Shown piece by piece: positions 3,450 to 54,121 of a stretch of DNA of 64,000 nt. A program made the translations under genes and the position numbers. The notes beneath the pieces are model-generated. The model did not search any database and was not told where the DNA came from. It was given only the letters and a program-made list of their open reading frames with translations. This stretch comes from Candidatus Kerfeldbacteria bacterium (GTDB lineage: Bacteria; Patescibacteriota; Patescibacteriia; UBA10025; JAHIVO01). The DNA lies in assembly GCA_016214565.1 (NCBI GenBank), contig JACROE010000002.1, positions 212,584 through 276,583 of the forward strand. Reading direction: 5' to 3'. How positions within the stretch are numbered: position 1 is the first letter of the stretch; each line of letters starts with the position of its first letter.

Positions 3450-3902
3450 CTAGTCAGCAGTGATACCACAGCCAATAGCACCAGTCGTGTAATCATCATC
3501 ATTCGTACCATCACCTTTCAACCAGTAATAATGTCCTGTGGCAGCTGGAGACTCCAACTGTGCATACAGGATATAGAACGGCGCGGTGAGACCACCGTTA
3601 CATGCTTGGTAGCGGTAGTGCCGAGTCGTATCCTGAGGATCATCCGGAACTCGAGTAATGTAGGTCGGCGCTAATGCGCTCAAAGCTACGTTAGCAATAC
3701 CACTCGTTGCCGGGTAGGTGCTGCCGTAATCGTCTGAGTACAGTACTAAACCAGTACGAATCTGACCAAGGTCAGATTTACGTGTGGCGTCACGGGCTTT
3801 TTCCCGGGCGCCATTTAAGGCTACCAAACCGATCGTTGCCAAAATACCGATGATGGCAATAACGACCAATAACTCAATAAGGGTAAAACCTTTTCGTTTC
3901 AT
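3450..3902 (-). CDS. pilA: Type IV major pilin (prepilin with class III signal peptide)
   Basis: MKRKG/FTLIELLVVIAIIGILATI shows the canonical prepilin cleavage/methylation motif with Glu at +5. C-terminal Cys pair (QACNGG...IGCGITAD) fits a disulfide D-region. Strong SD (GGGGGTG) 8 nt upstream. 150 aa. Confidence 0.9.
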   Translation of the reverse strand: MKRKGFTLIELLVVIAIIGILATIGLVALNGAREKARDATRKSDLGQIRTGLVLYSDDYGSTYPATSGIANVALSALAPTYITRVPDDPQDTTRHYRYQACNGGLTAPFYILYAQLESPAATGHYYWLKGDGTNDDDYTTGAIGCGITAD

Positions 3903-4192
3903 GTCTTCACCCCCTTTCTATATAGTGGCAAAGACATGCAATATGCTTCCGCGTTCTGCGAAATATCACAGATCACGGATCCGCCTGACCCGTGCTCTTC
4001 ACAGAGCAACGAAAGCGGATACCACATGTCTAGGAAACCACTTGGGATACTATTAGTTTCTTAGATTGAAACTGATAATTGAATGTGCCGTACGACAAGC
4101 TGATGCAAATCCTGTGTATAGAATAAATCAATAATATCACATTTCGTACGTATTGTCAACTAAAACTACGTAAAAAGCCAGCGTCTATTAGC

Positions 4193-5398
4193 TTAAATAG
4201 TACTGGACAGGTTATACAGTGGCAGAATAATGGCAGAAACCAAGAAACCGACGGCCACACCGATAGCAATCATAATAATTGGCTCGATTGCCGTTGTTAA
4301 ATTCCCCAGAGAATTCTCCAATTCCCGCTGATAAAAGTCAGCGATTTTCTCCAAAATTTTATCCAATTGACCCGACTGCTCACCCACGCTCATCATTTGC
4401 GACAACATCAACGGCACGTCCTTATTCTGGACAAAAACGGTCGTGATTGAAGCGCCGCCTTCAACCTTTTTAATGGTTTCCCGAGTTAAATCATGATACA
4501 GGGTATTCCCCACTACATCAGCTACGATATCCAAAGATTTGGTTAAGGGTACGCCTGAGGTCAGCAGCGTCGACAATGACCGAGCAAATCGCGTCAAATA
4601 CAATCGGCTAAACAGCGCCCCAACCAAAGGTAGCCGAATTTTTACTTTATCAATTACCCGTTTGCCTGCTGGAGTTTTATTATACCAACGGAATAAAATG
4701 ACTGCGCCGATCGCCAATAAAATAATAAGCCACCAAAATCCACGCAAAAAATCACTGATACCAATGAAGATGATAGTGGTCAGCGGCAAATCAACATCCG
4801 CTCCTTCAAAAATTGAAGTGATCTGCGGCAGCACAAAAATCATCATCATCGCTCCGACTAAAATAAGAGCGCTCACAATAAACGAAGGGTAAATCAATGC
4901 GCCGCGCGTTTTTGCTTTCAGGTCATAATCTTTTTCTTGTTGATCGGCCAAATAAACAAGAATTTCATCCAGTCGCCCAGTCGTTTCCGCTGAACGCACC
5001 ATCTGAATAAAGAAGTTTGAAAACACGCGAGGATATTTCCCCAGGGCCTGAGATAATTTAGCGCCACCATCAACTTCGTCAGCGACATCAGACAGCACTG
5101 ATTTTAGCTTGACGCTGTTTGTTTGTGCCACCATAACTTTCAGCGCGCGCACAATTGGCACGTTTGATGAAATCATCACCGACAACTGCCGAGCAAAAAC
5201 TACGATGTCCTTCGAACTGACCCCCGATCCAAATGACAGTCCTGAAAATAATTGCCGGGATTTCCGCTCCTTCAGCGATACGATAAATAAGCGCTTATCG
5301 CGTAACATGCCATACGCAATATTTTCCGACGGCGCCACTACGACGCCATCTACTGTTTGCCCTTCGATTGTACGCGCTTTATACGCAAATTCCGACAT
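4193..5398 (-). CDS. pilC: Type IV pilus inner-membrane platform protein PilC (GspF family)
   Basis: 401 aa. Two GspF-type repeats with TM segments, in typical PilC arrangement next to pilB. Confidence 0.85.
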   Translation of the reverse strand: MSEFAYKARTIEGQTVDGVVVAPSENIAYGMLRDKRLFIVSLKERKSRQLFSGLSFGSGVSSKDIVVFARQLSVMISSNVPIVRALKVMVAQTNSVKLKSVLSDVADEVDGGAKLSQALGKYPRVFSNFFIQMVRSAETTGRLDEILVYLADQQEKDYDLKAKTRGALIYPSFIVSALILVGAMMMIFVLPQITSIFEGADVDLPLTTIIFIGISDFLRGFWWLIILLAIGAVILFRWYNKTPAGKRVIDKVKIRLPLVGALFSRLYLTRFARSLSTLLTSGVPLTKSLDIVADVVGNTLYHDLTRETIKKVEGGASITTVFVQNKDVPLMLSQMMSVGEQSGQLDKILEKIADFYQRELENSLGNLTTAIEPIIMIAIGVAVGFLVSAIILPLYNLSSTI

Positions 5399-5407
5399 GG
5401 GTAAAAA

Positions 5408-5797
5408 TTATTTTTTCGTTTTGCTAATAATTGATTTCACTTTTTCCACCACTTCCGCTGGCATAAAATGCGCTTTGATCAAATAATCCACCGCACCAAT
5501 TGCCAGGCCTTTCTGCACATCCTCTTGCTGTCCGAGATTGGTCAGCATCAAAACCGGAATATTCTTTGTTTTTGGGTCGCTTTTGAGATTTTTTAGCACG
5601 TCAAACCCGCTCATTTTCGGCAAAATGACATCGAGCAAAATAATGTCCGGCTTGATTGATTGCGCTTGTTCAAGTCCCGCCTCCCCGTCACCTGCCAAAA
5701 CCACTTCAAAATCTTCAAGGTTCATCTTGGTAACGTACATGCCGGCTAAAAATGCATCATCCTCAACCAGTAATATTTTTGTTTTGGAGTTGGCCAT
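5408..5797 (-). CDS. Single-domain response regulator (CheY-like REC only)
   Basis: KILLVEDD...DIILLDVILPKMSGFDVLKNLK...PVLMLTN...K. All REC phospho-acceptor landmarks are present. 129 aa with no output domain. Confidence 0.85.
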   Translation of the reverse strand: MANSKTKILLVEDDAFLAGMYVTKMNLEDFEVVLAGDGEAGLEQAQSIKPDIILLDVILPKMSGFDVLKNLKSDPKTKNIPVLMLTNLGQQEDVQKGLAIGAVDYLIKAHFMPAEVVEKVKSIISKTKK

Positions 5798-5801
5798 ATG
5801 A

Positions 5802-7571
5802 CTATTTTTTAGTTGCGCTTAATACTTCACTAAATGACGTTTTGCGTTCCAGAGCCTTCATAATGCCGTCCTGTGCCATCACGACCATATTTTGGCGGAG
5901 AGCGGTCTCGCGGATAGCGTCAATCGTAGGATTACTCACAATAATATTCTTCATCTCATCATTGACCTCAATAATTTCATTAATCAAAATACGTCCTTTG
6001 TAGCCAGTGTTTTCGCAGCGGACGCAGCCCTTGCCTTCATAAAATTTGAATTCCGGCTTCTCCACGCCGAGATGGCGTTTATAGGCTTCTGGCGGGATGC
6101 CCATCATTTGCTTCTCTACCTCTTTCATTAATTCAGCGGGAAGCGCCACTTCTTCTTGGCAGTACTGACATAACCGACGCACCAAGCGCTGAGCCACCAC
6201 TGTTGAAAGTGAAGCCGTGATCAAGAATGGTTCAATTTTCATATCAATCATGCGGGGAATCGCGCCAAATGAATCATTGGTGTGTAGTGTGGATAAAACT
6301 AAATGTCCCGTCAGCGAAGCGTGCACGGCTAATTCAGCAGTTTCACTATCACGAATTTCACCGACCATGATCACATCCGGATCTTGGCGCAAAATAGAGC
6401 GCAATCCAGCGGCAAAGGTCAGTCCAACATCAGGGTTGATTTGCGACTGATTCACCCCTTCGATGTAATACTCAACCGGATCCTCTAGGGTCACGATATT
6501 AATTGCCTCGTCATTCAATATAGTTAACAACGCTGACAAAGTGGTGGATTTACCCGAACCAGTCGGCCCGGTGAGTAAAATCATACCCACGCTTTTTTCT
6601 GTAGCGCGTTTCATCAAGTCTAATGATCGTCCCTCAAACCCCAATTTTTCTAAATCAAGCACCACCGCCGCACGATCCAAAATACGCATCACGACTTTTT
6701 CATTGGCAAAGAGTGGCAGCGTCGAAACGCGATAATCAATAATACGCCCACCCCACTCCGTACGGAACCGGCCGTCCTGTGGCACCCGCGTTTCATCCAG
6801 CTTCAAATTGCACATAACTTTAATCCGAGCCACGATAGAATTATGAACATACCGCGGTAATACCAACGATGTGTGCAGCACGCCATCAACTCGATACCGC
6901 ACGCGCGTCTCATTTTCCACCGGCTCGATGTGAATATCAGATGCATTGCCTTCGACCGCGTGCTTCAAAATAACATTCACCATCTTAGACACAGGCGCGC
7001 TCTTGACCACCTCCTCCATTCCCTTTTCCTTCGTTAGCGCCTGCTCCAACATATCCTCGTCGCCATCCTTCTGCTCGGTACTTGCGAGCGCCTCTTCGAC
7101 TTCAGCGCCGAGCGTTGCATATTGTTTAAACGCTTGGCGGAAACCTGCATCAGAAATCAAAAAATAATTTAATTTGTACCCATTTTCTCGTGCAATAAAT
7201 TCTATGGCTTCAATCGCCTTGAAGTCTCCCGGATTAACCATGGCGACCGAAACCGTGTTCCCCTCTTTTGCGAAGGCAACCACGTGATAATTCTCGGATA
7301 ATTCGCGAGGGATCAAATTCAAAACTGATTGGGAAATTGTTTTCCCAAATAAATCAATATAGGTAACCCCTAATAATTGCGATCGACCACGCGCCACATC
7401 CTCCTCAGAAACAAATCCGCGCTGGAGCAATTCAGCGATAATCGACTCGTCATCCGTGGCGTGCTCGCGGACACTGGCTAATTTGTCAGCAGGTAACTGT
7501 ACTTGCTGAGTGACAACATCAACAATTGATTGAGCTGGGGATTGAAAATTTTGATTCAATTGATCATCCAT
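5802..7571 (-). CDS. pilB: Type IV pilus assembly ATPase PilB (GspE family)
   Basis: N-terminal T2SSE_N domain. Walker A LLTGPTGSGKSTTL, Asp/His boxes and a tetracysteine motif (CQYC...CVRC). 589 aa. Confidence 0.9.
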   Translation of the reverse strand: MDDQLNQNFQSPAQSIVDVVTQQVQLPADKLASVREHATDDESIIAELLQRGFVSEEDVARGRSQLLGVTYIDLFGKTISQSVLNLIPRELSENYHVVAFAKEGNTVSVAMVNPGDFKAIEAIEFIARENGYKLNYFLISDAGFRQAFKQYATLGAEVEEALASTEQKDGDEDMLEQALTKEKGMEEVVKSAPVSKMVNVILKHAVEGNASDIHIEPVENETRVRYRVDGVLHTSLVLPRYVHNSIVARIKVMCNLKLDETRVPQDGRFRTEWGGRIIDYRVSTLPLFANEKVVMRILDRAAVVLDLEKLGFEGRSLDLMKRATEKSVGMILLTGPTGSGKSTTLSALLTILNDEAINIVTLEDPVEYYIEGVNQSQINPDVGLTFAAGLRSILRQDPDVIMVGEIRDSETAELAVHASLTGHLVLSTLHTNDSFGAIPRMIDMKIEPFLITASLSTVVAQRLVRRLCQYCQEEVALPAELMKEVEKQMMGIPPEAYKRHLGVEKPEFKFYEGKGCVRCENTGYKGRILINEIIEVNDEMKNIIVSNPTIDAIRETALRQNMVVMAQDGIMKALERKTSFSEVLSATKK

Positions 7572-7585
7572 ATTCAGCGGCTCGC

Positions 7586-8503
7586 TTAGAAATTGATTGG
7601 CTCAAAAGGATTAGCGTGATACGGCACGCTCACGAGTTCGCGTGTCGATTCATTTCCCTCAGCATCGACTGCAGTAACCGTGTAATAATACGGCGTATTC
7701 GGCTGGATTGACGTATCGCTAAATGAATATTTGTCGCTATCGGCTCCGCTGCCCCCCTGAGGAGCACCCTCCACTAGTACACTGCCGAGCTGACCGCTTA
7801 TTGCAGAACGATAAATTCGCACTAAGGCAACGTCACTTGGATCTAATAATTGCCAGGTGATGGTCAATGAATCGTCGTTTGAGGTTACCGCCACATTGGT
7901 GGGACTCGCGGGTGGAACTTCATCAGTCGCGATAGCTGCTATATTAGACGAGTACGGTGATGTATCACCTTCAGCATTTGCCATGCGCACTACGTAATAA
8001 TATCGAACAAAATTTTCCACCGTTGTATCTCGGTAATTAAGTTCCGCGGATGCATCGGATGTTTCCAGTGTAGCGATTAATTCTCCCCTATCAGACGTAT
8101 TTTGCGATCGATAAATCTGCGCTGACGTAAAATTAACAAACGCCGGATTTTTCCATGAGATAATAAGCGTATTACCAACGCCGGGATTTTCTATGTGCAC
8201 ATTGGTGGGGGGCAAGGGTACACTCAAATCAAGAGCGACACCGCTGTATTGATCGGCATATCCCTCGTGCGGTTTGCGTGATAAGCCATTTAACTGGGAA
8301 TCAGAAAAAATATCCTCCTCAAACTTCGGCACGCTTACCTGAGGCATGGTACTGACCACTCCCGTCGGTGATACCTGCTGCTGGCTGGGCGCCGCTGCGT
8401 AAAATTGGCTGTAGACGAAATATCCACCACCCAGCACAATCACGAGTAGCGCGATAATGAGATTGACAGTTCGTTTATTGAGGCTGTGTTTCTGAATCAA
8501 CAT
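7586..8503 (-). CDS. Membrane-anchored protein with two fibronectin type III-like domains (in the PilP position of the operon)
   Basis: N-terminal TM (LIIALLVIVLGGGYFVY). Two approx. 90-aa units end in YYYVVRMANAEGDTSPYS and YYYTVTAVDAEGNES, which are FN3 G-strand signatures. Confidence 0.55.
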   Translation of the reverse strand: MLIQKHSLNKRTVNLIIALLVIVLGGGYFVYSQFYAAAPSQQQVSPTGVVSTMPQVSVPKFEEDIFSDSQLNGLSRKPHEGYADQYSGVALDLSVPLPPTNVHIENPGVGNTLIISWKNPAFVNFTSAQIYRSQNTSDRGELIATLETSDASAELNYRDTTVENFVRYYYVVRMANAEGDTSPYSSNIAAIATDEVPPASPTNVAVTSNDDSLTITWQLLDPSDVALVRIYRSAISGQLGSVLVEGAPQGGSGADSDKYSFSDTSIQPNTPYYYTVTAVDAEGNESTRELVSVPYHANPFEPINF

Positions 8504-8509
8504 ATAATA

Positions 8510-9091
8510 TTATTGATAGTACAGCGTAAGGTTGAGCGTATAGTTTGTCTGATCTGGATCGTATGCCAATGAGGTTAATTCAAGCAGCGGCAATTGCGTG
8601 CTCACCGCATCCAAAAAACTTTTCATTTTTGAGTAGCTGGTAACATTTTGCACTCCCAGAGATATGTTAAGTGTCTTAATTGCTGCCTTGGCCGCTTTTT
8701 TGGAGCCGTCCGGTATGCTTAATGGGCCGCTATCAATACTAACTAATGATAATTCATTATCTGCGACGAAATCCTTCAGTTCAATCATAATTTGCGGGAT
8801 TTCTGACTCATGGGGTAGGACTGACTGCAGCTGAGCAATCTGTGCGTGAGTGACCGCCCGATAGCGAGTTTCGAGATCCTCGAGCCGCTCAAGGGTAATC
8901 CGGCGCTGATTAAGCGCTTCGAGCTGTGTATTCAAATCAACCACGCCCGCTTCCTGAATATCGGTCACAATACGCTGGACAAAAAAGAGATAACCCAATC
9001 CCAATATCAGCACCACGCAGCCGATGACGACAAAAATAAAGTACCTGCTAAAAATATAAGCTATTCGACGTTTGAGTAATTTCGATTTCAT
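8510..9091 (-). CDS. pilO: PilO-like pilus assembly protein (TM plus coiled-coil plus ferredoxin-like domain)
   Basis: 193 aa. Single N-terminal TM and a coiled-coil-rich segment. Position between pilN and pilB. Overlaps the pilN stop by 4 nt. Confidence 0.55.
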   Translation of the reverse strand: MKSKLLKRRIAYIFSRYFIFVVIGCVVLILGLGYLFFVQRIVTDIQEAGVVDLNTQLEALNQRRITLERLEDLETRYRAVTHAQIAQLQSVLPHESEIPQIMIELKDFVADNELSLVSIDSGPLSIPDGSKKAAKAAIKTLNISLGVQNVTSYSKMKSFLDAVSTQLPLLELTSLAYDPDQTNYTLNLTLYYQ

Positions 9092-10824
9092 AAGGTCGGT
9101 GAGAAATAAAAGATGGCTGGCTGAACCGTCAATTCGACGGTGAAGGTCACTGGCGTGTCCCCGACTCGAGCAGCCGGAGTCGCGCTCCCTATCGCCGAAG
9201 TCGCGGTTGTGTTTGTTGATTCGGCCAGGGTTCCAGTAAAAGCAATCCCGGAAACCGTGACGTCAGAAACAAATGACTGAGCCTTTTCAAATACCATAAG
9301 CTGCTTAATCGCGGCGTCATAATTACGGCCAACCGCTTGCAGTGTTACGGTGCCATTTACATCAGCAGACATTGAGGTGAAATACACGTCAGGACTGGTT
9401 GCCCGCTCCAATTCTGAAAAGAATGATGACCAATACACGTGCTTATCCAGCAGTGTGGAAACATTATCAATCTGTACGCGCAATTCATTAATCTCATTAA
9501 GCATTTTCTCGTATGACCGTATTTGAATATCCGCAATGACGATCTGGTTATTCATTTTATTTATCTCGGTAGTAATCGAATTGTAATACCAGTTTGCCCA
9601 GAGCCACCCGCCAAAAACGACGCCCACGGCCACTACAATAAATGTTGCCAGCATCATCACCCGCGAAATCGAAATTTCTTGTTCAAGCGATTCTTCGGGT
9701 ACTAGGTTGACTTCCCAATTCGTGCCAAGCGGTGCGCCAGCGCCCAAACCAGCCTGAGCCTGTAGCGTGTGAGAGGCCGCTGCTGGCCGATGAAATAATT
9801 CCTTGAACCATTGCAGCAAACGCATCCACCCCGAGAGCTGCTGTTTTTTTGGCTCAGCCTGGGTCATGGGTTGCGCTTCAGTCATGCGCATAGCTTCGTT
9901 TGTTGCGTGTTTTTTCTTCGGCACTGCCTGCACTATCGGAATTGTCGGGGCTGGCGGAACCACGGGCATTGCCGGCACAGCCGGTTTGGCAACTGACGGA
10001 ATTGGTACACTCGAAACTACCGGCTTCGAAAATTTAATCGCCGGAGCTGGAGAAGGTGTCGTGGGCGCAATAACCGTTGGACGTACCGGTTGAATTACTT
10101 TTGGCGTTGGAGCAATGATTGGCGATGAAACTGCCGCAGCTTTGAAACGGACTGACAAGGCGGGCTCAACCGGTGTGGGCATTGCCTCTATTTCTGTTGC
10201 CGCAGGTTTTACCACTGCCGGCTTCTCTGCTCGCGCAAACAACCCACGTAACCAATGCAATAATCGAGTAAAGAATGATCCCTGATGGGTAGACTTGCTC
10301 AAACCAGCAACAGTCGTCACCGTAATCACGTCTCCATGACGATGCTGATCATCCACGGGCTGTGATACTTCCCTTTCTGAACGTACGGGCGAGTATTTAG
10401 GAAACCGTTCGCCCAGTGGCTGGGTTGGTACAGCGGGCGCAACTGGAGCCGACTGACGCCGCATAAAGCGCGCCAAAAATCCACCCGAATCTTTTGGTAA
10501 TGGATGGGGCGTTACAACTGGTTTCGCCGCTGGTTTCACATATGTGATTACCTTCTTTTCAGGTAGAGCGGGTGCCGCTCGATATACAATATGCTCCTCA
10601 ATATTCACTTTGCGCTCGGGTAAACGAACTGCTGTTTCGTCAGCAACTTGTTTTTTTGGTCGAGAAAAAGCACCCTTAAAAAATGTCAAAACACCTGCCC
10701 GCTTCACGCTTGATCGCGATTTTTCGCTATGCGTGGGGCCAGTCATGACAATGGTTTGTTCGCGGGATTGTTTTTCGGTTTTTGCTTTTGCTTTTTCCTC
10801 GCTAGGGAGGAGATTGATCGCCAT
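9088..10824 (-). CDS. pilN: PilN-like pilus assembly protein with approx. 380-aa Pro/Ala-rich insertion
   Basis: Starts MAINLLP (PilN INLLP motif). Single TM near residue 395 (VMMLATFIVVAVGVVFGGWLW). The C-terminal approx. 180 aa looks like a PilN periplasmic domain. A long low-complexity PAxP region separates the INLLP motif from the TM. Confidence 0.6.
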   Translation of the reverse strand: MAINLLPSEEKAKAKTEKQSREQTIVMTGPTHSEKSRSSVKRAGVLTFFKGAFSRPKKQVADETAVRLPERKVNIEEHIVYRAAPALPEKKVITYVKPAAKPVVTPHPLPKDSGGFLARFMRRQSAPVAPAVPTQPLGERFPKYSPVRSEREVSQPVDDQHRHGDVITVTTVAGLSKSTHQGSFFTRLLHWLRGLFARAEKPAVVKPAATEIEAMPTPVEPALSVRFKAAAVSSPIIAPTPKVIQPVRPTVIAPTTPSPAPAIKFSKPVVSSVPIPSVAKPAVPAMPVVPPAPTIPIVQAVPKKKHATNEAMRMTEAQPMTQAEPKKQQLSGWMRLLQWFKELFHRPAAASHTLQAQAGLGAGAPLGTNWEVNLVPEESLEQEISISRVMMLATFIVVAVGVVFGGWLWANWYYNSITTEINKMNNQIVIADIQIRSYEKMLNEINELRVQIDNVSTLLDKHVYWSSFFSELERATSPDVYFTSMSADVNGTVTLQAVGRNYDAAIKQLMVFEKAQSFVSDVTVSGIAFTGTLAESTNTTATSAIGSATPAARVGDTPVTFTVELTVQPAIFYFSPTL

Positions 10825-11030
10825 AGTTTTGCCTCCTTTTGTTTTTTGTTTTGTGGGGTACGTGCTTTGGCGAGATGCACGGATACAACCAAGACCCTCA
10901 TATCAGGGTGCTCGGCTTTTTTATTCAGGCAAATAATAGTTTTTCCCTATATTTACCTTAATATACATATATTTTAGCACATTTAAAAACTAAAGTCAAG
11001 CACCTCTGACCTTAAAATGCATAATTCAAA

Positions 11031-12206
11031 TTATTGCAACTCTCGCATGGCCAAACCGATAGCAACGGACATGCGCGGACCCAATTCACGTAATAATGAA
11101 TCAATTTCAACCGGATGCACCACGCGCGCCCAAGGATCGCCCACAAACGACCGAATGTTGAAGCTTTCTTGAATATACTGGGTTATGTTACCGAGAAAAG
11201 CCGAACCGCCAGTTAACACAACTTTTGAAATCGGCTGTTTATTCTGATTTCGGTAAATATTAGTAATATATCGAATTTCATTCATGATAGCGTTGATCAC
11301 GTATTTCACTTGCTTTGGCAATTGGTCAAGCGGCTGATTAGCCATTGAAATAGTGAGATCACGCTTCATTTGCTCAGCCTGTTCATACGAAACCTGCATC
11401 GAATCCACAATCGCCTGGGTGATACTTTTCCCTCCGAGGTCAATACTCCGATTCAAGATAGGCACGCCGTCAGCATAAATGATAATACTCGTCGCTCCGC
11501 CGCCGATATCAATGACCATGATGGGATTGTGATCATTCCCTACCAGCGAGCGCTCGATAGCGAATGATTCTGTTTCCAAACCAACTAATCGGAGGCCAAC
11601 GTCTTTAAAAAGGGCAACGTAATTATTTACTAAATTTTTGGGAGCGGCGGTTAAGAGAACCTTCAGATTTGGTTTTGAGTCTCCTCCAATAATACTCCGC
11701 TTATCAACGGTATCTTTCGCTGAAGCCCCTTTATCCGTTGGATTTGTGTTCGGGACATTCAATCCTGCAGTATTTATCTCTTTCTCTTTCTTCCTCTTTT
11801 TGTCCTCTTGCTTACCATCGTCGCCAGGCATGCCGCCTAATACCTCCCAATCCAAAATCATTTCCTCTAAGGGAATAGGTACAAATTTCTTCGCTTCCCA
11901 TCGCACCGCTGAAATCAAATCCTTCTTATTCATGGCGGGTAGACTGATGATCGAACTGAATACGCTAAAGCTTGGCAGTGCCGCTACCGCATTTTCTGTG
12001 GATACCTTGGCGCGCTTCAGCAACTCACGCAAATGCTCAGCGATTGCCGCCCGCGCTTCTTTCGTATCATCCTTCACGATATTGTATGTCTCATCAATAA
12101 AACCATACGTCACCAGCTGAGGGCGATTCTGCTCTAACTGCAATTCAACAATCTTAATACTGGATCCTCCTAAATCGATTCCGACGTAACTTTGTTTTTT
12201 TGCCAT
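11031..12206 (-). CDS. pilM: PilM (actin-like ATPase of the type IV pilus inner membrane complex)
   Basis: SYVGIDLGGSSIKIVEL...MVIDIGGGATSIIIY...LTGGSA are actin/FtsA-fold phosphate motifs. 391 aa with a Lys/Glu-rich insert. Confidence 0.85.
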   Translation of the reverse strand: MAKKQSYVGIDLGGSSIKIVELQLEQNRPQLVTYGFIDETYNIVKDDTKEARAAIAEHLRELLKRAKVSTENAVAALPSFSVFSSIISLPAMNKKDLISAVRWEAKKFVPIPLEEMILDWEVLGGMPGDDGKQEDKKRKKEKEINTAGLNVPNTNPTDKGASAKDTVDKRSIIGGDSKPNLKVLLTAAPKNLVNNYVALFKDVGLRLVGLETESFAIERSLVGNDHNPIMVIDIGGGATSIIIYADGVPILNRSIDLGGKSITQAIVDSMQVSYEQAEQMKRDLTISMANQPLDQLPKQVKYVINAIMNEIRYITNIYRNQNKQPISKVVLTGGSAFLGNITQYIQESFNIRSFVGDPWARVVHPVEIDSLLRELGPRMSVAIGLAMRELQ

Positions 12207-12292
12207 AGGTAATTAATGTATAATGTAAAATCTATAATGCATAATCTATGTTCAGAAAATTATACATCATACATTACTCATTATTAAATACT

Positions 12293-27926: not shown

Positions 27927-27934
27927 GATAATGA

Positions 27935-30900
27935 TTATAATGGACGACAGTGTAGCGAATTAGTCGTAATATCAAATCCTTTTGCAAATTGTCCGTCCTG
28001 ACACGAAGTGGAAAACCCGCGTACGTCATCGCTGCTACCGCCCCACACATTTGCGATCACTTGAAAATCATTCGTCACAATCAATTCTCTTCCGATTGAC
28101 GCCTGGCCTGACGAAAAAATACTCCCCGCTTGATTACGACCCGGGATGGTCGTCTGAAGATTAGCTAAACCCTCAAGGTCGGGATGAGAAAACCCCGTGC
28201 CTGAAAAAAACTGATGCAAATTATATCCATCACAATTATTTGTCGTTTGGTTCACCCAGATGCTGCTTCCGTCAAAGGTAAGACTATTCGGATTGCAGTA
28301 GTACCCATATTGAGTGCCATCAAGGTACTGGCTGGTACCGGCATTGATCCGATTCAGGTAGGCGGCATTCTCACGAACTGACTCATCAATATCAGAAGCG
28401 CTGGAACACTCCGGATCAGGACGCCCGCTGCAACCCGGCGATCCAGGGGCACCATCATAGTCACACAATCCATTCCCATCATTATCCACCCGATCAGCGC
28501 ACTCAATATCAGTGGTGGTGCCATAGTAATCACTACTATCGGTCTCATGGGCATCATCGACTGAGGCACATTTCGTATCTGCCGGGAGAGCGCCGCAACC
28601 CCGATCACATTGCCCGTTGCCATCATTATCGATACCATCCTCGCACTCACGTGTGTAGTTCGCCCGCTCCTGGACTGCCCAGATGTGCGTCCCGTCAAAA
28701 GTGAGGGCACTCACATTATTAGCCGTGGCACTACATGTCCCTCCGCCCGTACATTGGCTTGTCGCCGTGCAAAAAAGATTCGCCCGAGTCCCACCTGAAC
28801 AGCGACCTGGTATATTCATCGTCGGAATACGCGCCGCTACTGATCCATCACTGATGCGTACTTTATATACGCTGTTACCATCCGTATCTCGATTCCGCGC
28901 ACCAAACCAAAGGTAGGTACCATCAAATAATATTGAATATAAATTATCGTCCACGTTATACGCGGTAGAAATCGCATAGGTACTCAATATAGCGCCTGTC
29001 GTGCGGTCAATCTTTGAGTAACTATTGCGTCCTGCGCTAGTGGCAGTTTTCCGTGTCACCCAGATATATTCGCCATCGAAGGCAAGATATTTTGGCCCAT
29101 TAGCCACGGCAAAGGAACTCGCCGTGCAATTCGATCCACTACAGCTAATGGGGTCAATTCGTTTCAGGGTATTGGTACTATCATCACTGATCCAGAGGTA
29201 TTGCCCATCAAAGATCATATCATTACCATCTTCATTTGAGCTGGTAGTGTAATCATAATCACCGATCAGTACGCCATCGCTCGCGCGGATTTGCGCCAGC
29301 TCAGTATTTGATCCGCCGGCGCTGCCATGCGTTACCCAGATTGACTGTCCATCAAACGCTAAGTATGACGGATAGTAGCCGCTGAAGTAATCGCCGACCT
29401 TCTGTCCGTCGCTGGCACGGTACTTACTAATAGTATTCCCGGCGTTATTTGATGACCAAAGATAAGTGCCGTCATACAGGGTATCCTGAGAAAATGAACC
29501 CTTGGGGATGTAGGTGATCGTCGTATACGGCGCATCAATCATATTGCGACTGATTGAGCTGGCTACCCCGTGGCTGCCCCAAACATAATCAACCGGTCCT
29601 GATTCGCGATCAAAATCAAAGTCTGCCATTCCATCGGGGACTTCGTAGCTATGGACGATCGTTCCGGTGGTATTTATTTTGAAAAAATCATAATAATTAT
29701 GCGCCCATACATACGGACCGCCCGATGATGTATCGTCATATTCTACCTTTTCAAGATTAGTAGTCACTGACGCGTAATTGGTGAATGTCTCAGTGGTCGG
29801 ATTAAAACTCGCCAATCCTTCATTGCCCTGATACTTGCTGTAATGAGATGACTTCCCTATCCATACTTTCCCGTCGCCCCAAGCCAATGCGTGCGGTTCG
29901 CTGGCCGGACCAGGACAATATACTTTTTGTAGCGCGGTATTAGTCGGGTCAGCTGCAGAGAATTTAGCAATTCCTTCACCACGGTAGAGTAACGTGGGTG
30001 TCATCGAATCTAGTCCGTCAAATGCTACCCAAATAGTGGGGCTGGATGGGTCGGTAGTATTTGGCTGAAGCGTGATACCGTGGATAGCATTGACCGACGC
30101 CATAACCAGCCGCTCATCACCAGCCGGATAGGCACCCGTAGGACTGGTGCCGGGTGCCTGGGTTTGATTGATACATTCTGTATCGCCAGGTGTCCACGTG
30201 CCACCATTAGCCTGACAGGTTGCTTGAGTCGTGTAGCTCGCGTTGCTGCAGATCCCGCTATCAATATTCCCATCCCCATCATTATCGAGCCGATCGGAGC
30301 AACGTTTCGGATCATAAGAAAGACACTGATCACCTGTGTTCGGTGCCAGTTTGAAATTGGTATAAGTCTGATCCGCAATGCGAAAACGGGAAATTGAATA
30401 ATCGCGGCTCAAACCCGCATCATTGATAGTCCATATATATGGTCCACCAATGGTGTATGGATCATAAATCAGATCAGTTGGACCGTCATCAGAGGCCGAC
30501 GCATGCGCGCCCACGGCATAATGGGTGGCTGTATGTGTCGGATCATTAGGATCAACGCGAGATATGCCGAGAGCGTCATCCCAATTATTGGCTACCCAGA
30601 TATACCCGCCGCCGAGTATCATCTCACTGGTACCATGAGCTTGTGTGCCGCTGCTGTTCTCTAGTATAAATTCTTCGCTAATAGCGCCGTTCGAAGGATC
30701 AAGCAGAAGAAAATAGGGTGAGTTGTCCCACGATTCACCAATTAATTGCCAAATCCAGGTTCCGTCAAAGAGCATAACAGACGGATCGACAATTTTGCTC
30801 GAAGCGAGATCTCGCAATTCTTGCCCAGCCGTATACGGAAATTGAGAATTCTGTAATCGATTTGGCATAAATCCGCGAGCATAGCTCTCCTGTGAACTAT

Positions 30901-31627
30901 ACACCTGCTGGGCAAAATATCCCGCCCACGCACCGACGCCAGTCGCCTGGCCGTAAACGCCCGCTCGCTTAATCGCAGCTGCTCGATCGAGTGCGGCATT
31001 CGAGCTCCCTACCACAGCCGAGCTGGCTAGGCTGTCCGCCCGGATACCAGTGCCCGAGCTTGTATTCAAACCATACACACCGGGGCCAGCAGTACCGATG
31101 CCGCGTACTGCCGCCTGACCATCCTGCTGAGTCGTGCCCAGCGCACCATAATTCAGAGCGCTGCTCGTGACTAAGGCTGACCCAGTCACACCAGCGGACT
31201 GAGTGCCAATCAATAGACCGCCATCCAATTCAAGTAATGTCGCCGGATCATTAAGGCCAATGCCTACCCGATGTGTATTTCCATCTACATATAATGTATC
31301 GGTGTCTACCTGCAGTGTACCGGCGGGAGCTACTTCAAAATTATTAATAAACACGTCGCGCGTTCCACGCACCTCAAGTGGATACATAAACGAAGGTAGT
31401 TCGCCATAAGGATTGTAATACGGATCAAGCAGCAACCATCCGCGTTTTGCCTGACTATCGCGACTCGTGTTGAGCGGTGCATACACGTTTCCGGCTGGCG
31501 GCTGGGCTGACGGCGGATTCCAAACGGCCTTGACCGAAGCAACCCAGAGCAAATAAATTGCAGCGCTAACTACAATCAAGAGAGCCCCAGCAATGAATGG
31601 ATGTATTGTATTGATTCGACGAGTCAT
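27935..31627 (-). CDS. Large exported protein, paralog B (1230 aa): same N-module and blades, plus Asp-rich Ca-binding-like Cys/Asp stretches
   Basis: PPSAQPP...QAKRGWLLLDP...LQVDTDTLYVD. Blades include FDGTYLWSSNNAGNTISKYRASDG, FDGQSIWVTHG, FDGQYLWISDD, FDGEYIWVTR, FDGTYLWFGAR and FDGTHIWAVQ. DNDGNG motifs. Ends CQDGQFAKGFDITTNSLHCRPL. Confidence 0.85.
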   Translation of the reverse strand: MTRRINTIHPFIAGALLIVVSAAIYLLWVASVKAVWNPPSAQPPAGNVYAPLNTSRDSQAKRGWLLLDPYYNPYGELPSFMYPLEVRGTRDVFINNFEVAPAGTLQVDTDTLYVDGNTHRVGIGLNDPATLLELDGGLLIGTQSAGVTGSALVTSSALNYGALGTTQQDGQAAVRGIGTAGPGVYGLNTSSGTGIRADSLASSAVVGSSNAALDRAAAIKRAGVYGQATGVGAWAGYFAQQVYSSQESYARGFMPNRLQNSQFPYTAGQELRDLASSKIVDPSVMLFDGTWIWQLIGESWDNSPYFLLLDPSNGAISEEFILENSSGTQAHGTSEMILGGGYIWVANNWDDALGISRVDPNDPTHTATHYAVGAHASASDDGPTDLIYDPYTIGGPYIWTINDAGLSRDYSISRFRIADQTYTNFKLAPNTGDQCLSYDPKRCSDRLDNDGDGNIDSGICSNASYTTQATCQANGGTWTPGDTECINQTQAPGTSPTGAYPAGDERLVMASVNAIHGITLQPNTTDPSSPTIWVAFDGLDSMTPTLLYRGEGIAKFSAADPTNTALQKVYCPGPASEPHALAWGDGKVWIGKSSHYSKYQGNEGLASFNPTTETFTNYASVTTNLEKVEYDDTSSGGPYVWAHNYYDFFKINTTGTIVHSYEVPDGMADFDFDRESGPVDYVWGSHGVASSISRNMIDAPYTTITYIPKGSFSQDTLYDGTYLWSSNNAGNTISKYRASDGQKVGDYFSGYYPSYLAFDGQSIWVTHGSAGGSNTELAQIRASDGVLIGDYDYTTSSNEDGNDMIFDGQYLWISDDSTNTLKRIDPISCSGSNCTASSFAVANGPKYLAFDGEYIWVTRKTATSAGRNSYSKIDRTTGAILSTYAISTAYNVDDNLYSILFDGTYLWFGARNRDTDGNSVYKVRISDGSVAARIPTMNIPGRCSGGTRANLFCTATSQCTGGGTCSATANNVSALTFDGTHIWAVQERANYTRECEDGIDNDGNGQCDRGCGALPADTKCASVDDAHETDSSDYYGTTTDIECADRVDNDGNGLCDYDGAPGSPGCSGRPDPECSSASDIDESVRENAAYLNRINAGTSQYLDGTQYGYYCNPNSLTFDGSSIWVNQTTNNCDGYNLHQFFSGTGFSHPDLEGLANLQTTIPGRNQAGSIFSSGQASIGRELIVTNDFQVIANVWGGSSDDVRGFSTSCQDGQFAKGFDITTNSLHCRPL

Positions 31628-31630
31628 ATA

Positions 31631-34600
31631 TTATATTCCACGACAATCAATTCTTACTACCCCGCCGGCGGTATTCACCGTCACATTAGTGATATAGTGA
31701 CCATTCGGGCAGGTCTGGGTGCCTGGTGCCAAAACGCCCAAACCCGATCGATACACTTGCCCATTTGCCGCACCGGCGTAGAGATAGCCATTTGCAGTTT
31801 TGAGCAAGGTGTTGATTTGCGGCGTCCCGGACAAGGTGGTGAGCAGCGACCAGCTCGATCCATTATCAGTCGAGCGGAAAATCTTTCCTCCGGCAGTGCC
31901 GGCATACAGATACCCATTCGTTGTCTGCATTAATGCATTGACCATCGTGGTACCAGTCAGCGCGGTCTTCGTCCAATTAACCCCGTTATTGATTGAACGA
32001 AAAACACCGCCCGTGTCTGTCCCAGCATAGAGATATCCATTCGCTGCTCTTGTCATCGACTTGATTGCCTCAGCCGGTGAGAGCGTAGCTAAAAGCGTCC
32101 AATTCAAGCCGGAATCAACCGATTGTAGAATCTGTCCATTATCCACACCAGCCAGAATCGTCCCATTCGGTAAATCAGTAAATGCATAAATGATTCCGTT
32201 TGTGCTTGAGTACACGTCAGACCAAGACGCCCCGTTATCAGTAGAACGAGATATGCGAAATGCTCCCGTGTGAATATTGGTGCTCCGCGCAACGTAAATG
32301 ATGCCGTTGCTCCCCTGAAAGATAGCGTCAAATTTTGCCTGCCCGGCTGACAGCGCACCCCCCGCTTGCCAGGTCGCCCCATTAGTATCCGAATAATACA
32401 TCGTGGTAATCACGCCCTGCCCAGCAAATAGCCGCGTTCCACTGCGAAGCATGACTTGCACCCGATCACCCGGCGGAGTCGCCGCCGGCTGGGTCCAGGT
32501 CGTCCCCTGATTACTTGATAAATGTATCCAGCGCACACTGCCATTAACGCCAGCGACCAACGTATTAGCGGCTGACTCTACCATTGCATTCACCGAAGTT
32601 GCATTAGCGAGCGCTCCCATAGCCGGCCACGTACTATCGTCAAAATTGGTAAGGACATCGCCCGCGCCAACCTTTTGCCAACTGTTGCCCAGAGCATCCA
32701 CATTGCCATCAATTTGCACATCATTCCCCACCCGAGCATCTCCGGTAATGCTATAGCTCCCCCGTTGCCATGTCGGCACCGTCGTAGACTGCAGCGACAA
32801 TGCTTCAGCAAATGACTGGTCGCCATAGCCCGTCCCGGCAAATAATTTAACAACGCCGGCAGAGCCGGAATTTCCAGTACCCGTGGACCACAAATAGGAA
32901 CCATCAAATTCTAAACTCTGTGGCGCGAAGGCAAGCGGAATATCCAAGCGATTGTTCGGATCCGCGGCCTGCAATCGGCTGAGACTCTGACCCGCATAAT
33001 TTGCGGTCCACACATGCGTCCCATCAAAGGCAATCCCTACTGGTTCATTACCAGTCGCGAAAGTCCCGACGGCCTGTGGCAGCGCGAAGCACCCGCCATT
33101 ACCCGCGCAGTCAGTGTCAGTCGAGCAGGTAATTGTCTGATCCAGCGAGCAACGTTTATTATTGGTGAGGTAATATTGAGTGACGGAATTCGTGCCGCGA
33201 TTGGCTACCCAATAATGAACGTTGTCATACACAATATCAACTGGATTTAACCCAACTAATCCGGTCCAGAGCGCTGCTTGGCGTGTGGCAGGATTCATAT
33301 TTACGACCGCATTCTCTGCCGAAGAAACCGCCCAGAGAAAACTGCCGTTGTAAATAATTTTCCCTAACGAATTTGCGGCATTGGAAACATCGGTGCGGCT
33401 CAATTCAGCGCAGGTGTTGCTCAAATTGATAATCTCACCGGTGCCCTGGGCAGATACCCAATAACTTCGGCCATCAAAAGCGATACTGACCGGCTTGGTG
33501 CCACTGGCAAAAACTTTTGAGCAAACGATTGCGCCAGAATACAAATTCACCTTGTAAACGGTATCGGCATCACGCGCGGTCACCCAAAAATAATTACCAT
33601 CATGAAATCCCTCGGTCATACCAGCACCAAGGGTTGCCTGATATGCCACAAATCCGTCGCTGGCTCGGACTTTCCACAATTCTGAACCACGCGACAGCCA
33701 CACGTACGTATTGTCATGATACAAAATCGAAAAACCAATCTTTGAATAATCAAACGTTTGCGCAACCGACCCAGTACTACTCTCGAGTCCAACCACGGTG
33801 CGACCATACCAGCTCGGCACCCACACGCGATTGACTGATGGATCAAATAGTATATCGCGATACGACCGATTGCTGTTTGCGGGGAAATGCGACAAGGCGC
33901 TGGGATTATTTGCCGGGAACCGATCGACATAACCAGCCGGTGCTCCACTCGTGGTCGCTACCCAAATATTTGTACCATCATAGGTGATCGCCTGCGGTCC
34001 AACGGGCCCCGCATACGTCGCAATCCTCGAGGAGACAGTCCCCGAACCAATATTGATGTAATAAGCGCCATCACTGCCAGTACCACTATCATCGGCCGAG
34101 GCCCACATGTAATGACGGTTACCATCATAAACTAAATCAGTTGGTCCCGGCACGCTGAAACGAGTATAATCTGACGCACTGATGGTCGCATCACCCCCGC
34201 CTGGATTGACTGAGTTTATCCGATATACTGCATCATTATTACTAAAAGCGAGCCATAAGCTATTAGTCGTAGTATCAAAAGTAATGGCGCGAGGTCCCTG
34301 TGAATACGGCGCGGTCATCGATTCAGCATGTTCTATATCATAGCGGGCAATCGGCTGCCAGTTCACGCTATCATCTGTATAATCGGAAATTCGGAATTGC
34401 TCGAGCCGATCGTGATAATCTCGTCCAAAACAATCTCCACCGGCATGCAACGCCCATAAAATATCAGAATCGTTTGGATCCTGAACAATAAAACCATACG
34501 GACATGTGCCATGAGCATCCGCATCAAGCACGCTTCTTGATTCCGCAATCCCCGATGCAATGTTGACGCGAGCGATTTTTCCCGAGTACGTATCAGATGC

Positions 34601-35587
34601 CTGCCAAATATATCCATTCGGCTGATCATACATGAGATCTTGAGCTGGACCGAGTGTGTAGCGAGCAGTTACCTCGCCGGTTCCTTTGTCTACACGCAAC
34701 AAATCGTTATGGCCATTTCCCGCCTGACCGATCCAAAGCCATTTCCCATCAGTGGCCATGCGCGCCGGGTACAATTCAGGAAATAATTGCGCAGCAATTT
34801 GACCTTCGGTATAGGGGATCAGCGATTCAGGCTCTGTAGTTCGAAGAATCTTTGCAGCTGAAACAATCTCATTGGACTCGAGCAACCCAGTAAAGTACCC
34901 AGCCCAGCGGTTGCTCAAGTTCAAACTTGTTCCATAGACACCGATACCCGTCGAGCTAAATCCACCTACCGCACTATACAAAGGGGTAACAGCTGTATGC
35001 GCCCCCTCAAGAGCAGCACTCAAGCTTGCTACTGCCCACATACCATAGCCCGACGTGCTGCTCGACACCCCCTGCACTCCGTACGTCGCTCCATACCCAT
35101 AGAGTGCCTCACTATCAGCACTCACCGCGCGAACACCCGCTTCATCCAAGCCAGTCACGCGCATTCGTCCACTCGGGATTTGCAATATTGCCGAGTCTCC
35201 CGACACGCAGCTATTCACACAGACGCGATTATTGAGAGGGTCAACAAACAATGTTTCAGAAGAATCGTTAACTTTCAAGGTATTGTCGATGATACCCTCA
35301 GTAGTACGAGCGCCACTGCCGAGCACCTCTAACTGATAGGCATATGGTGAAGTTTGATCATCTGTTCCGAAACGTAGTGCACCGCTTTTTACCTGATTTG
35401 ACTCGTCAATTCTCAGTAATTCTGGGGTATTGTCTTCAGGCGGCGGAGCACTAGGGTCAGGTAAGGCATCGGCAAATCCGCCATTAATAAAGAAAATACA
35501 GCCAGCAATTACAAAGGAAATAAAAAATAGGCTAAAATTAGCCAATTTATTATACTGACGCTTAGTTTTCTTATTGAAAATACTCAC
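31631..35587 (-). CDS. Large exported protein, paralog C (1318 aa): same N-module, beta-propeller blades, and C-terminal BNR/Asp-box propeller
   Basis: Signal peptide (...FINGGFA/DA). PDPSAPPP...QVKSGALRFG...SETLFVDP. Blades include TDGKWLWIG, FDGRSYWVS, FDGTHVW and FDGSYLW. Ends CPNGHYITNVTVNTAGGVVRIDCRGI. Confidence 0.85.
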   Translation of the reverse strand: MSIFNKKTKRQYNKLANFSLFFISFVIAGCIFFINGGFADALPDPSAPPPEDNTPELLRIDESNQVKSGALRFGTDDQTSPYAYQLEVLGSGARTTEGIIDNTLKVNDSSETLFVDPLNNRVCVNSCVSGDSAILQIPSGRMRVTGLDEAGVRAVSADSEALYGYGATYGVQGVSSSTSGYGMWAVASLSAALEGAHTAVTPLYSAVGGFSSTGIGVYGTSLNLSNRWAGYFTGLLESNEIVSAAKILRTTEPESLIPYTEGQIAAQLFPELYPARMATDGKWLWIGQAGNGHNDLLRVDKGTGEVTARYTLGPAQDLMYDQPNGYIWQASDTYSGKIARVNIASGIAESRSVLDADAHGTCPYGFIVQDPNDSDILWALHAGGDCFGRDYHDRLEQFRISDYTDDSVNWQPIARYDIEHAESMTAPYSQGPRAITFDTTTNSLWLAFSNNDAVYRINSVNPGGGDATISASDYTRFSVPGPTDLVYDGNRHYMWASADDSGTGSDGAYYINIGSGTVSSRIATYAGPVGPQAITYDGTNIWVATTSGAPAGYVDRFPANNPSALSHFPANSNRSYRDILFDPSVNRVWVPSWYGRTVVGLESSTGSVAQTFDYSKIGFSILYHDNTYVWLSRGSELWKVRASDGFVAYQATLGAGMTEGFHDGNYFWVTARDADTVYKVNLYSGAIVCSKVFASGTKPVSIAFDGRSYWVSAQGTGEIINLSNTCAELSRTDVSNAANSLGKIIYNGSFLWAVSSAENAVVNMNPATRQAALWTGLVGLNPVDIVYDNVHYWVANRGTNSVTQYYLTNNKRCSLDQTITCSTDTDCAGNGGCFALPQAVGTFATGNEPVGIAFDGTHVWTANYAGQSLSRLQAADPNNRLDIPLAFAPQSLEFDGSYLWSTGTGNSGSAGVVKLFAGTGYGDQSFAEALSLQSTTVPTWQRGSYSITGDARVGNDVQIDGNVDALGNSWQKVGAGDVLTNFDDSTWPAMGALANATSVNAMVESAANTLVAGVNGSVRWIHLSSNQGTTWTQPAATPPGDRVQVMLRSGTRLFAGQGVITTMYYSDTNGATWQAGGALSAGQAKFDAIFQGSNGIIYVARSTNIHTGAFRISRSTDNGASWSDVYSSTNGIIYAFTDLPNGTILAGVDNGQILQSVDSGLNWTLLATLSPAEAIKSMTRAANGYLYAGTDTGGVFRSINNGVNWTKTALTGTTMVNALMQTTNGYLYAGTAGGKIFRSTDNGSSWSLLTTLSGTPQINTLLKTANGYLYAGAANGQVYRSGLGVLAPGTQTCPNGHYITNVTVNTAGGVVRIDCRGI
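31748..32527 (-). repeat. BNR/Asp-box repeat array (S-x-D-x-G-x-T/S-W) at the C-terminus of the 1318-aa protein
   Basis: SSNQGTTW, SDTNGATW, STDNGASW, SVDSGLNW, SINNGVNW and STDNGSSW recur at approx. 45-aa spacing, alternating with GY(L/I)YAG motifs. Confidence 0.7.
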
Positions 35588-48050: not shown

Positions 48051-48052
48051 AA

Positions 48053-49318: not shown

Positions 49319-49324
49319 AGTTTC

Positions 49325-50404: not shown

Positions 50405-50419
50405 AACTTAAAAGGGAGA

Positions 50420-51073: not shown

Positions 51074-51104
51074 AAAATATATAGATTAACCTTTAATAAT
51101 TGAC

Positions 51105-53003: not shown

Positions 53004-53004
53004 A

Positions 53005-53682: not shown

Positions 53683-53687
53683 GATGA

Positions 53688-54119: not shown

Positions 54120-54121
54120 AC

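Follow-up and report, generated by a model that had tools for sequence, protein, structure and literature searches.

Why a groundwater bacterium with a small genome should carry five genes for apparently exported proteins, one of them almost 4,000 codons long, directly in front of its type IV pilus (T4P) genes is the question raised by a 64-kb stretch of a metagenome-assembled genome (MAG) of Candidatus Kerfeldbacteria, which belongs to the Patescibacteria or Candidate Phyla Radiation (CPR). In this stretch, hereafter called the window, 13 genes follow one another on the minus strand, namely A1318, B1230, C791, D490 and E3934, named by the lengths of their products and abbreviated as A to E, and then pilM, pilN, pilO, an FN3 gene, pilB, a REC gene, pilC and the pilin gene. 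A to E take up 23.3 kb of coding sequence, or about 2% of the 1.116-Mb contig, which accords with the small-genome host assumed in a preliminary description of this DNA, and our calls of open reading frames (ORFs) bore out all the coordinates and the minus-strand orientation given there. The same description spoke of five giant exported proteins. A single N-terminal hydrophobic segment was indeed found in each of the five, although only E3934 is truly giant and D has no more than 490 residues.

As shown below, the locus is an ordinary CPR/monoderm T4P machine with apparently exported accessory proteins before pilM, and E3934 is an overgrown representative of a family that is widespread and encoded ahead of pilM. 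We read A to E as adhesins that are coupled to the pilus, putatively by contact with it, and that were greatly enlarged in the Kerfeldbacteria clade, and we give this reading a probability of about one half.

Two protein families upstream of pilM

A genome scan with PilM retrieved 25 Patescibacteria loci, with PilM identities of 44-79%, and in every one of them a large ORF of the E type lies immediately before pilM on the same strand. Their lengths lie between about 700 and more than 3,300 residues, with many of the ORFs running off the fetched DNA. BLAST to E3934 was positive in 23 of the 25 loci, mostly over its last ~700 residues, which contain what we call the module (E3934 residues 3262-3934; window 12296-14314, minus strand), and the C-terminal peptide '…(I/V)YDGR..AN.PPGL.DF…LP…' ends the protein in all 25, in a variant form in L021. 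The gap to pilM measures 5-595 nucleotides (nt) and is below 50 nt in ten of the loci, and the order downstream is conserved as pilM-pilN-pilO-fn3-pilB-REC-(PilT-like)-pilC-pilin. In addition, a metagenome scan gave 80 loci, retrieved through two conserved peptide patterns that favour canonical members. Of these, 72 have a same-strand pilM downstream of the module gene at a distance of 21-739 nt; seven of the remaining eight have less than 800 nt of contig left, and L112 alone has room for pilM and lacks it. The locus search was seeded with a 13-sequence alignment, the 109-sequence alignment A3 being too divergent. Single look-ups of small members found pilM directly downstream in two of three cases (L033 and L034), and across the sampled range PilM identity drops to ~36-45%. 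The linkage of the large proteins to the pilus genes, for which the preliminary description had looked to conserved neighbourhoods in related genomes, is thus strongly supported.

The module family was defined by an exhaustive HMMER search with E3934 residues 3223-3934 as the query, and it has 691 cluster representatives at a threshold of E <= 1e-3, of which 397 remain at E <= 1e-10. Its members span from ~350 to more than 5,000 residues: the ~30 closest relatives of E3934 are giants of 3,000-5,000 residues, and most others among the 150 listed have 350-900. The small members that we inspected consist of a signal peptide, a few 'GW-x-W-S…GW-I-S-L' repeats and the module; they seem to start with cleavable Sec signal peptides and not with a pilin helix, and their N-terminal halves are highly variable. 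Common to the family is a core made up of E3934 residues 3262-3505 and the last ~60 residues. The ~370 residues in between are two inserted DNRLRE carbohydrate-binding domains (residues ~3517-3875; window 12473-13549), assigned both by their score (NCBIfam DNRLRE, NF033679, 48.6 bits against a curated cut-off of 34) and by their fold, which is that of a solved DNRLRE carbohydrate-binding module (CBM). The core itself had no Pfam, NCBIfam or PDB sequence match. An AlphaFold2 (AF2) model of the module, with a mean predicted local distance difference test score (pLDDT) of 71.6 and ~95 in the core, predicts a beta-helix formed by residues 3262-3505 and closed by residues 3876-3934, which end in '…IVYDGRVVANTPPGLADF…LPLYQRVVP'. 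The predicted beta-helix is like that of ice-binding proteins and of the pilus protein ComZ, a resemblance that lies in the fold only and may be generic; the ice-binding family DUF3494 (PF11999) gave no Pfam match at E <= 1, either in the E3934 module or in five small members.

The rest of E3934 (window 12293-24097, minus strand; 3,934 residues) begins with a hydrophobic membrane anchor (residues 6-35) and a domain common with D490 (residues ~36-400), followed by an fn3 domain with a weak Pfam match (residues ~1075-1137; window 20687-20875) and two BNR-like propeller regions (residues ~1710-2140 and ~2800-3215; window 17678-18970 and 14453-15700). A Pfam scan of E3934 in ten segments gave weak matches to fn3, BNR_4 (22 bits, sub-threshold) and DUF7948 only, and the whole protein had no Pfam, NCBIfam or PDB sequence match. 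PDB sequence searches with E3934, B1230 and the family profile returned as their sole match the GW repeats against RCC1-like UVR8, which is not significant (E = 0.22). A word-indexed protein search gave no match for E3934 residues 1-800, missing E3934 itself, and four for residues 2620-3934, and its index seems blind to very long proteins. The two propeller regions are similar to each other and to the non-CPR proteins P0011-P0013, which we dropped as a clue to the function of E3934, as they share only BNR-like propeller repeats and stand in unrelated, non-pilus contexts. Degenerate 'GW-I-x-F' remnants of GW repeats were seen at residues ~2146, ~2729 and ~3267 (window ~17660, 15910 and 14300), flanking both propeller regions, and E3934 may have grown by the insertion of whole domains between ancestral GW repeats. 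D490 (window 24094-25566, minus strand; 490 residues, membrane-anchored) is 25% identical to E3934 residues 2-391 and hence a paralogue of its N-terminal domain. D490 had no Pfam match and evolves fast, its orthologue in L001 being just 26% identical and the gene being absent from L002. The N-termini of both proteins have no AxA cleavage site and carry a conserved G-W-Y motif after the helix.

A1318, B1230 and C791 form a second family and are, as the preliminary description had recognized, paralogous large proteins, with mutual identities of 25-29%. Its hallmark is a mature N-terminus of the form 'W-x-E-P…PP-x-x-N…Q-K-x-G-L' after a site resembling that of signal peptidase I. A1318 (window 31631-35587, minus strand; 1,318 residues, secreted) has a signal peptide followed by the variant 'LPDPSAPPP', and ends in a BNR/sortilin-type propeller (residues ~1011-1251; window 31835-32557) with Pfam scores above the cut-offs (BNR_2, 33.4 against 31.4; Sortilin-Vps10, 35.6 against 33); its orthologue in L001 is 51% identical. 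B1230 (window 27935-31627, minus strand), whose mature N-terminus is 'VWNPPSAQPPAGN', is rich in Cys (24 residues) and shares 61% identity with its orthologue in L001 and 32% with that in L002. C791 (window 25551-27926, minus strand; HZC01_01225) has the mature N-terminus 'EWREPSIPPP', a 7-8-bladed beta-propeller predicted by AF2 with a pLDDT of ~80-90 (residues ~265-640; window 26007-27134) and a Cys-rich C-terminal region that terminates in C…CRGL. Foldseek matched its model to YncE, YVTN and WD40 propellers, that is, to a generic propeller only, and a search of 5.8 billion proteins yielded only nine homologues of C791. Elsewhere in the Patescibacteria, the module gene usually comes after a gene for one large secreted protein of 455-1,358 residues, and the W-x-(E/G)-P…PP-x-x-N motif, often continuing as Q-K-x-G-L, was present after an AxA-type cleavage site in 14 of the 18 large upstream neighbours that we inspected. 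A, B and C share the W-x-E-P…PP motif with these neighbours. All ten members of the module and W-x-E-P families that we looked up in databases are unnamed or called 'hypothetical protein'.

Upstream of the A to E block, the window has divergently oriented genes for LemA and HtpX, and the order of divergent LemA, a small ORF, A, B, C, (D) and E is retained in L001 and in L002/L003, which were found via C791. Among 25 loci of other Patescibacteria with upstream sequence, several have, divergently upstream, ORFs of 185 and ~295 residues that agree with LemA and HtpX in position, orientation and size, the comparison being one of size alone. Because a single W-x-E-P gene and these LemA/HtpX-sized ORFs precede the module gene elsewhere, the ancestral layout has HtpX and LemA oriented divergently, with a W-x-E-P gene, a module gene, pilM and the remaining machinery genes following in this order. 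Accordingly, the linkage to the pilus genes is not peculiar to giant proteins, as the preliminary description had implied, but reflects an ancestral arrangement of two genes, found across Patescibacteria, which became inflated in the Kerfeldbacteria-type clade. Most of the Patescibacteria sampled carry one gene per family, with ~450-850 residues for family 1 (the module proteins) and ~450-1,360 for family 2. In the Kerfeldbacteria clade, family 2 is triplicated to A, B and C, and family 1 has been enlarged to 3,934 residues through the gain of an anchored N-terminal domain (duplicated as D490), fn3, two BNR-like propellers and two DNRLRE modules.

A probable role in attachment and its alternatives

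Since a module or motif is fixed, the remainder is variable and A to E evolve faster than the machinery, we see these proteins as adhesins docked to a conserved partner; with the species of loci L001 and L014, A to E are 26-61% identical, and PilM, PilB and PilC 78-83%. E3934 probably acts with the pilus in attachment, because an E-type protein precedes pilM in nearly all sampled related loci. The conserved modules might couple A to E to the pilus or to an envelope-spanning machine, and the variable propeller and CBM parts might recognize the glycans of a host cell or particle, so that extension of the pilus and attachment would act jointly.

A number of observations weigh against this reading. 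The physical contact of A to E with the pilus is one that we infer. The metagenome loci are biased towards canonical members by the way they were retrieved, and pilM is absent downstream in L112 and in the single look-up L035. In the models, the first ~140 residues before the helix of the E3934 module have low confidence, and the Gly-rich N-module of C791 is unpredictable as a monomer (pLDDT <35). Judged by their sequence, the N-termini of E3934 and D490 look like uncleaved membrane anchors, which is a poor fit to a released tip protein, and a motif scan of the window found no minor pilins able to form a tip complex. Moreover, the similarity of the module to ComZ is weaker than that to plain ice-binding proteins. 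A location at the tip is thus argued against by the anchored E and D, by the lack of nearby minor pilins and by the rank of ComZ below plain ice-binding proteins.

The beta-helix fold has precedent in pilus-associated proteins, namely ComZ and the tapirins. The solenoid of the competence-pilus protein ComZ of Thermus thermophilus has an ice-binding protein as its nearest structural relative, and ComZ has been argued to be a DNA receptor at the pilus tip (PMC6561018). ComZ (PDB 6qvi) and the module are alike in that both are large beta-solenoids of the ice-binding type in a T4P system and in that a pilin status is not evident from sequence motifs. However, the solenoid of ComZ sits within a GspK-like pilin fold and is paired with the adjacent minor pilin PilA2, whereas here we found neither a pilin-like domain nor a minor pilin in the neighbourhood; ComZ and the module have no detectable similarity in sequence, E3934 is about seven times as long, and ComZ is encoded among pilins and E3934 before pilM. 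The tapirins, a group of adhesins, have their genes next to the T4P locus in Caldicellulosiruptor (bioRxiv 10.1101/359786). They scored far below ice-binding proteins or ComZ in structural comparison with the module, no sequence relationship was found, and they differ further in binding cellulose and in being encoded downstream of the pilus genes.

The preliminary description had likened the large proteins to PilY1, and the design logic of PilY1/PilC1 of Pseudomonas and Neisseria is indeed recognizable here, with a Sec-type N-terminus instead of a prepilin signal, a variable adhesive N-terminal region, a conserved C-terminal domain, propellers and linkage to T4P. The analogy fails for the conserved domain, which is a predicted beta-helix and not a PilY1-type propeller, and there was no match to Pfam PilY1/Neisseria_PilC or to NCBIfam. 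In addition, PilY1 is encoded with minor pilins, whereas E3934 is encoded with pilM in a monoderm, and the sole prepilin gene of the window lies 8 kb downstream. Within the Patescibacteria, PilX2 of the Saccharibacterium Nanosynbacter lyticus TM7x combines a propeller with a non-canonical signal peptide, and experiments have shown that T4P-2 requires it to bind the host (PMC12206443). Compared by description, PilX2 resembles A to E as a pilus-associated propeller protein of Patescibacteria and is unlike them in being a lollipop-shaped minor pilin from the pilin locus. Giant genes beside loci resembling the type II secretion system (T2SS) have been described in Omnitrophota (bioRxiv 10.1101/2023.11.21.568195). 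Like E3934, these giants and the FhaB/DUF2341 proteins of more than 5,000 residues in Patescibacterium danicum are very large, N-terminally anchored, linked to type IV filament genes or domains and read as adhesins of ultrasmall or predatory bacteria, but their domain content is different, with no FhaB or DUF2341 match here, and, unlike them, E3934 is traceable to an ancestor that was small, widespread and linked to pilM.

Against the background of these systems, two other explanations deserve consideration, both of which we deem unlikely. The first makes the beta-helix module a structural component of the machine itself, which would span the envelope or align the fibre on its way through the cell wall and S-layer and, in a monoderm, replace PilP, PilQ or TsaP functionally, while the N-terminal part of E3934 would be a clade-specific surface decoration. 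Such a role would agree with the near-invariable position of the module gene next to pilM, where it opens the machinery block and belongs to the same transcription unit as pilM, as well as with the membrane anchor of E3934 and with the failure to find a secretin or PilP. It is at odds with the apparently cleavable signal peptides and variable N-terminal halves of the small members, with a size range of ~350 to more than 5,000 residues, which is more adhesin-like than expected of a stoichiometric component, and with the carbohydrate-binding domains inserted in the module, which are more typical of adhesins. To our knowledge, the monoderm T4P of Firmicutes also function without a protein of the module type.

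The second explanation, to which we likewise give little credence, holds that A to E are independent surface adhesins or S-layer-like proteins that are co-located and co-regulated with the pilus and do not contact it. The Sec-type N-termini of all five, their propeller, fn3 or CBM domains and their rapid divergence relative to PilM, PilB and PilC speak for this explanation, and the tapirins (bioRxiv 10.1101/359786) and the giants of Omnitrophota (bioRxiv 10.1101/2023.11.21.568195) offer precedents for it. Simple co-regulation, however, does not explain why one C-terminal module and one N-terminal motif should stay fixed at two positions over a range in which PilM identity falls to ~36-45% and all other parts of these proteins change. 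The notion that A to E are cargo pushed through the wall or S-layer by a T2SS-like pilus machine is in our view very improbable: T4P and T2SS machineries are homologous, A to E are apparently Sec-exported and encoded alongside the machine, and their conserved terminal motifs could serve as recognition signals, but there is no outer membrane to cross and no secretin among the scanned ORFs, E3934 is apparently membrane-anchored, and we know of no linear terminal signals in T2SS substrates. We also considered A to E as giant pilins and rejected this, since they have no canonical prepilin motifs. No DNA-level repeats or cassettes for antigenic variation were found among A, B and C, nor any tandem repeats.

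Pilus machinery, transcription units and neighbouring genes

The machinery genes, all on the minus strand, begin with pilM (window 11031-12206; Pfam PilM_2, E = 5e-45), which encodes the actin-like cytoplasmic component. The product of pilN (window 9088-10824; 578 residues) starts with MAINLLPSEEK and matches Pfam PilN weakly (16.9 bits, below the cut-off); a cytoplasmic linker of ~360 residues leads to a membrane helix (residues 382-411) and then the PilN domain. Its INLLP start is kept in 21 relatives, and in the Thermus PilM-PilN structure this motif binds PilM. The linker is of low complexity and rich in Pro and Lys, and makes the protein unusually long for a PilN, with 444-755 residues in relatives. 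Next is pilO (window 8510-9091), with a Pfam PilO score of 21.3 bits, just below the cut-off of 22; its position, like that of pilN, is conserved wherever the fetched DNA of the relatives reaches it. Between pilO and pilB lies the gene of a membrane-anchored Ig/fn3 protein (window 7586-8503; Pfam fn3, E = 7e-8), which is kept in the 22 Kerfeldbacteria-type loci that extend beyond pilO, and which we regard as a possible PilP-like partner. The assembly ATPase PilB (window 5802-7571; T2SSE, E = 2e-127) has an N-terminal MshEN domain (E = 3e-14), a domain that binds cyclic di-GMP in MshE. A CheY-like single-domain response regulator (REC; window 5408-5797; Response_reg, E = 5e-22) separates it from the platform protein PilC (window 4193-5398; T2SSF, E = 4e-58), and the REC gene occupies this place in 21 of the 21 relatives whose fetched DNA extends that far. 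The block ends with the major pilin (window 3450-3902; N_methyl, E = 2e-9; TIGR02532), which has the class III signal KRKG|FTLIE and is the only canonical prepilin in a six-frame motif scan of the window.

Among the scanned ORFs of the window, which were most, not all, of those of at least 100 residues, there was no secretin, PilP, PilD or PilT. The absence of secretin and PilP upholds the monoderm-type machine of the preliminary description and is in line with Méheust et al. 2019 (PMC6744442). In six distant relatives (L015, L017, L019, L023, L026 and L027), a gene for a PilT-like ATPase of ~360 residues lies between REC and pilC; there is none at the window locus, whose pilus may thus be without a locally encoded retraction motor.

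The array had been taken for a single 32-kb operon with gaps of -16 to +9 nt and one exception of 86 nt. The junctions on which this rested are as given, with gaps of 3 nt between A and B and 8 nt between B and C, a 16-nt overlap of C and D, an ATGA overlap of 4 nt between D and E and a gap of 86 nt between E and pilM, but gaps of 206 nt between pilM and pilN and 290 nt between pilC and the pilin gene had been missed, and the 14 nt between FN3 and pilB also fall outside the range. Genome-wide scans for promoter consensus sequences performed at chance level, and promoters were accepted only after cross-species conservation; the top minus-strand hits fall inside the long gaps. One is a sigma-70-type promoter before pilN (window 10971-10999, minus strand; TTGACT, 17 nt, extended -10 TGTGCTAAAAT), the hexamer core columns of which are invariant in 14 relatives (alignment A6). 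The spacer that holds it (window 10825-11030) measures 210-405 nt in the giant-bearing clade, with E-type proteins of at least 3,000 residues, and 6-20 nt in the more distant relatives, whose E-type proteins are shorter. Perhaps the internal promoter evolved so that the machinery could be expressed independently of the 23-kb block of giant genes. The other is the pilin promoter (window 4131-4159, minus strand; TTGACA, 17 nt, extended -10 TGTGATATTAT), which is largely invariant in 17 relatives (alignment A5) with pilC-pilin spacers of 121-321 nt. Because both long gaps carry conserved promoters, the genes probably form three transcription units, A to E with pilM, pilN to pilC, and the pilin gene, in place of one operon.

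The coupling of the giant gene to pilM, which the operon reading had included, stands, as the spacer between E and pilM is often only a few nt in length and has no promoter conserved across relatives. No evident Shine-Dalgarno sequence precedes pilM. At 10-15 nt upstream of its start there is an AT-rich motif, ATTATACATTA (spacer at window 12207-12292), which is seen again in L006, L011, L012 and L016, loci that have a spacer; it may be a -10-like element for a leaderless or short-leader pilM transcript. The pilin leader of ~220 nt (window 3903-4159) is structured, with a folding z of -4.3, and includes the ribosome-binding site GAAAGGGGGTGA and a conserved hairpin (window 3966-3995, minus strand; GCACGGGTCAG/GCGGATCCGTG). 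A near-invariant leader element, GCACGG(G/A)TCA…CGGATCCGTGATCTGTGA, was seen in 12 relatives and might serve as a regulatory hairpin in the RNA or as the operator of a DNA-binding protein. Searches of the long leaders for known riboswitches or RNA families gave no Rfam match even at E <= 1, and terminator scans of the intergenic gaps gave nothing convincing.

The minus-strand run extends beyond the pilin gene through two glycosyltransferase genes to position 1172. The first encodes a PMT_2 glycosyltransferase of the GT-C type (window 2162-3352, minus strand), directly after the pilin gene, and the second a GT2 glycosyltransferase (window 1172-2146, minus strand), both assigned by Pfam. GT2 follows the pilin gene in nine relatives, and PMT_2 was seen in the window only. 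Their position next to the pilin gene recalls pilin glycosyltransferases such as TfpW, and both may be candidate glycosylation genes for the pilin or the large surface proteins. Elsewhere in the window (46638-55453, minus strand) lies a monoderm-type type IV secretion system (T4SS) cluster with two T4SS_pilin-domain proteins, one of them fused to an SLT transglycosylase, a PD40/propeller protein, a TraG/VirB4-like P-loop ATPase and a PrgI-family protein, which resembles the T4SS of Patescibacteria in PMC12102498. Next to it (window 55465-58970), the PPDK_N (317 residues) and PEP-utilizers (508 residues) domains of a PEP/pyruvate-utilizing enzyme are encoded by separate minus-strand genes, with an unannotated plus-strand ORF (56576-57403) in between. 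Among the relatives, MAG records labelled 'uncultured Gammaproteobacteria' (L006, L009, L010, L017, L025 and L027) hold a Patescibacteria-type locus with full synteny and PilM identities of 44-63%, and these labels are probably wrong.

A possible role in host recognition

Few systems have been shown to be necessary for the episymbiosis of Patescibacteria, and T4P are one of them: they are essential in Southlakia (PMC10633639) and, as T4P-2, drive the host binding of TM7x (PMC12206443). The T4P of CPR bacteria, giants beside filament loci in Omnitrophota, very large putative adhesins of Patescibacteria and a propeller adhesin of Saccharibacteria are already known. In the literature searched, the coverage of which is incomplete so that a prior description is possible, we found no account of the family pair upstream of pilM or of the derivation of a 3,934-residue protein from one of the two families. 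Both families, unannotated and fixed before pilM in the sampled loci, thus provide concrete candidates for those parts of the pilus that recognize a host, and the Kerfeldbacteria locus shows how far such parts can expand, at ~2% of a 1.1-Mb genome. In addition, the promoters and the conserved pilin leader element provide handles on pilus regulation in uncultured bacteria.

We tentatively propose, as a possibility rather than the expected outcome, that the T4P of Patescibacteria have two near-universal accessory proteins encoded directly before pilM, one secreted with the beta-helix and the '…YDGR..ANPPPGL' tail and the other secreted with the 'W-x-E-P…PP' mature N-terminus, and that together they constitute a host-recognition head of the pilus that replaces the tip formed by PilY1 and minor pilins, and that in Kerfeldbacteria has reached ~400 kDa with glycan-binding modules. 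If this is true, the genes of families 1 and 2 would be the primary determinants of the hosts to which a CPR cell can attach.

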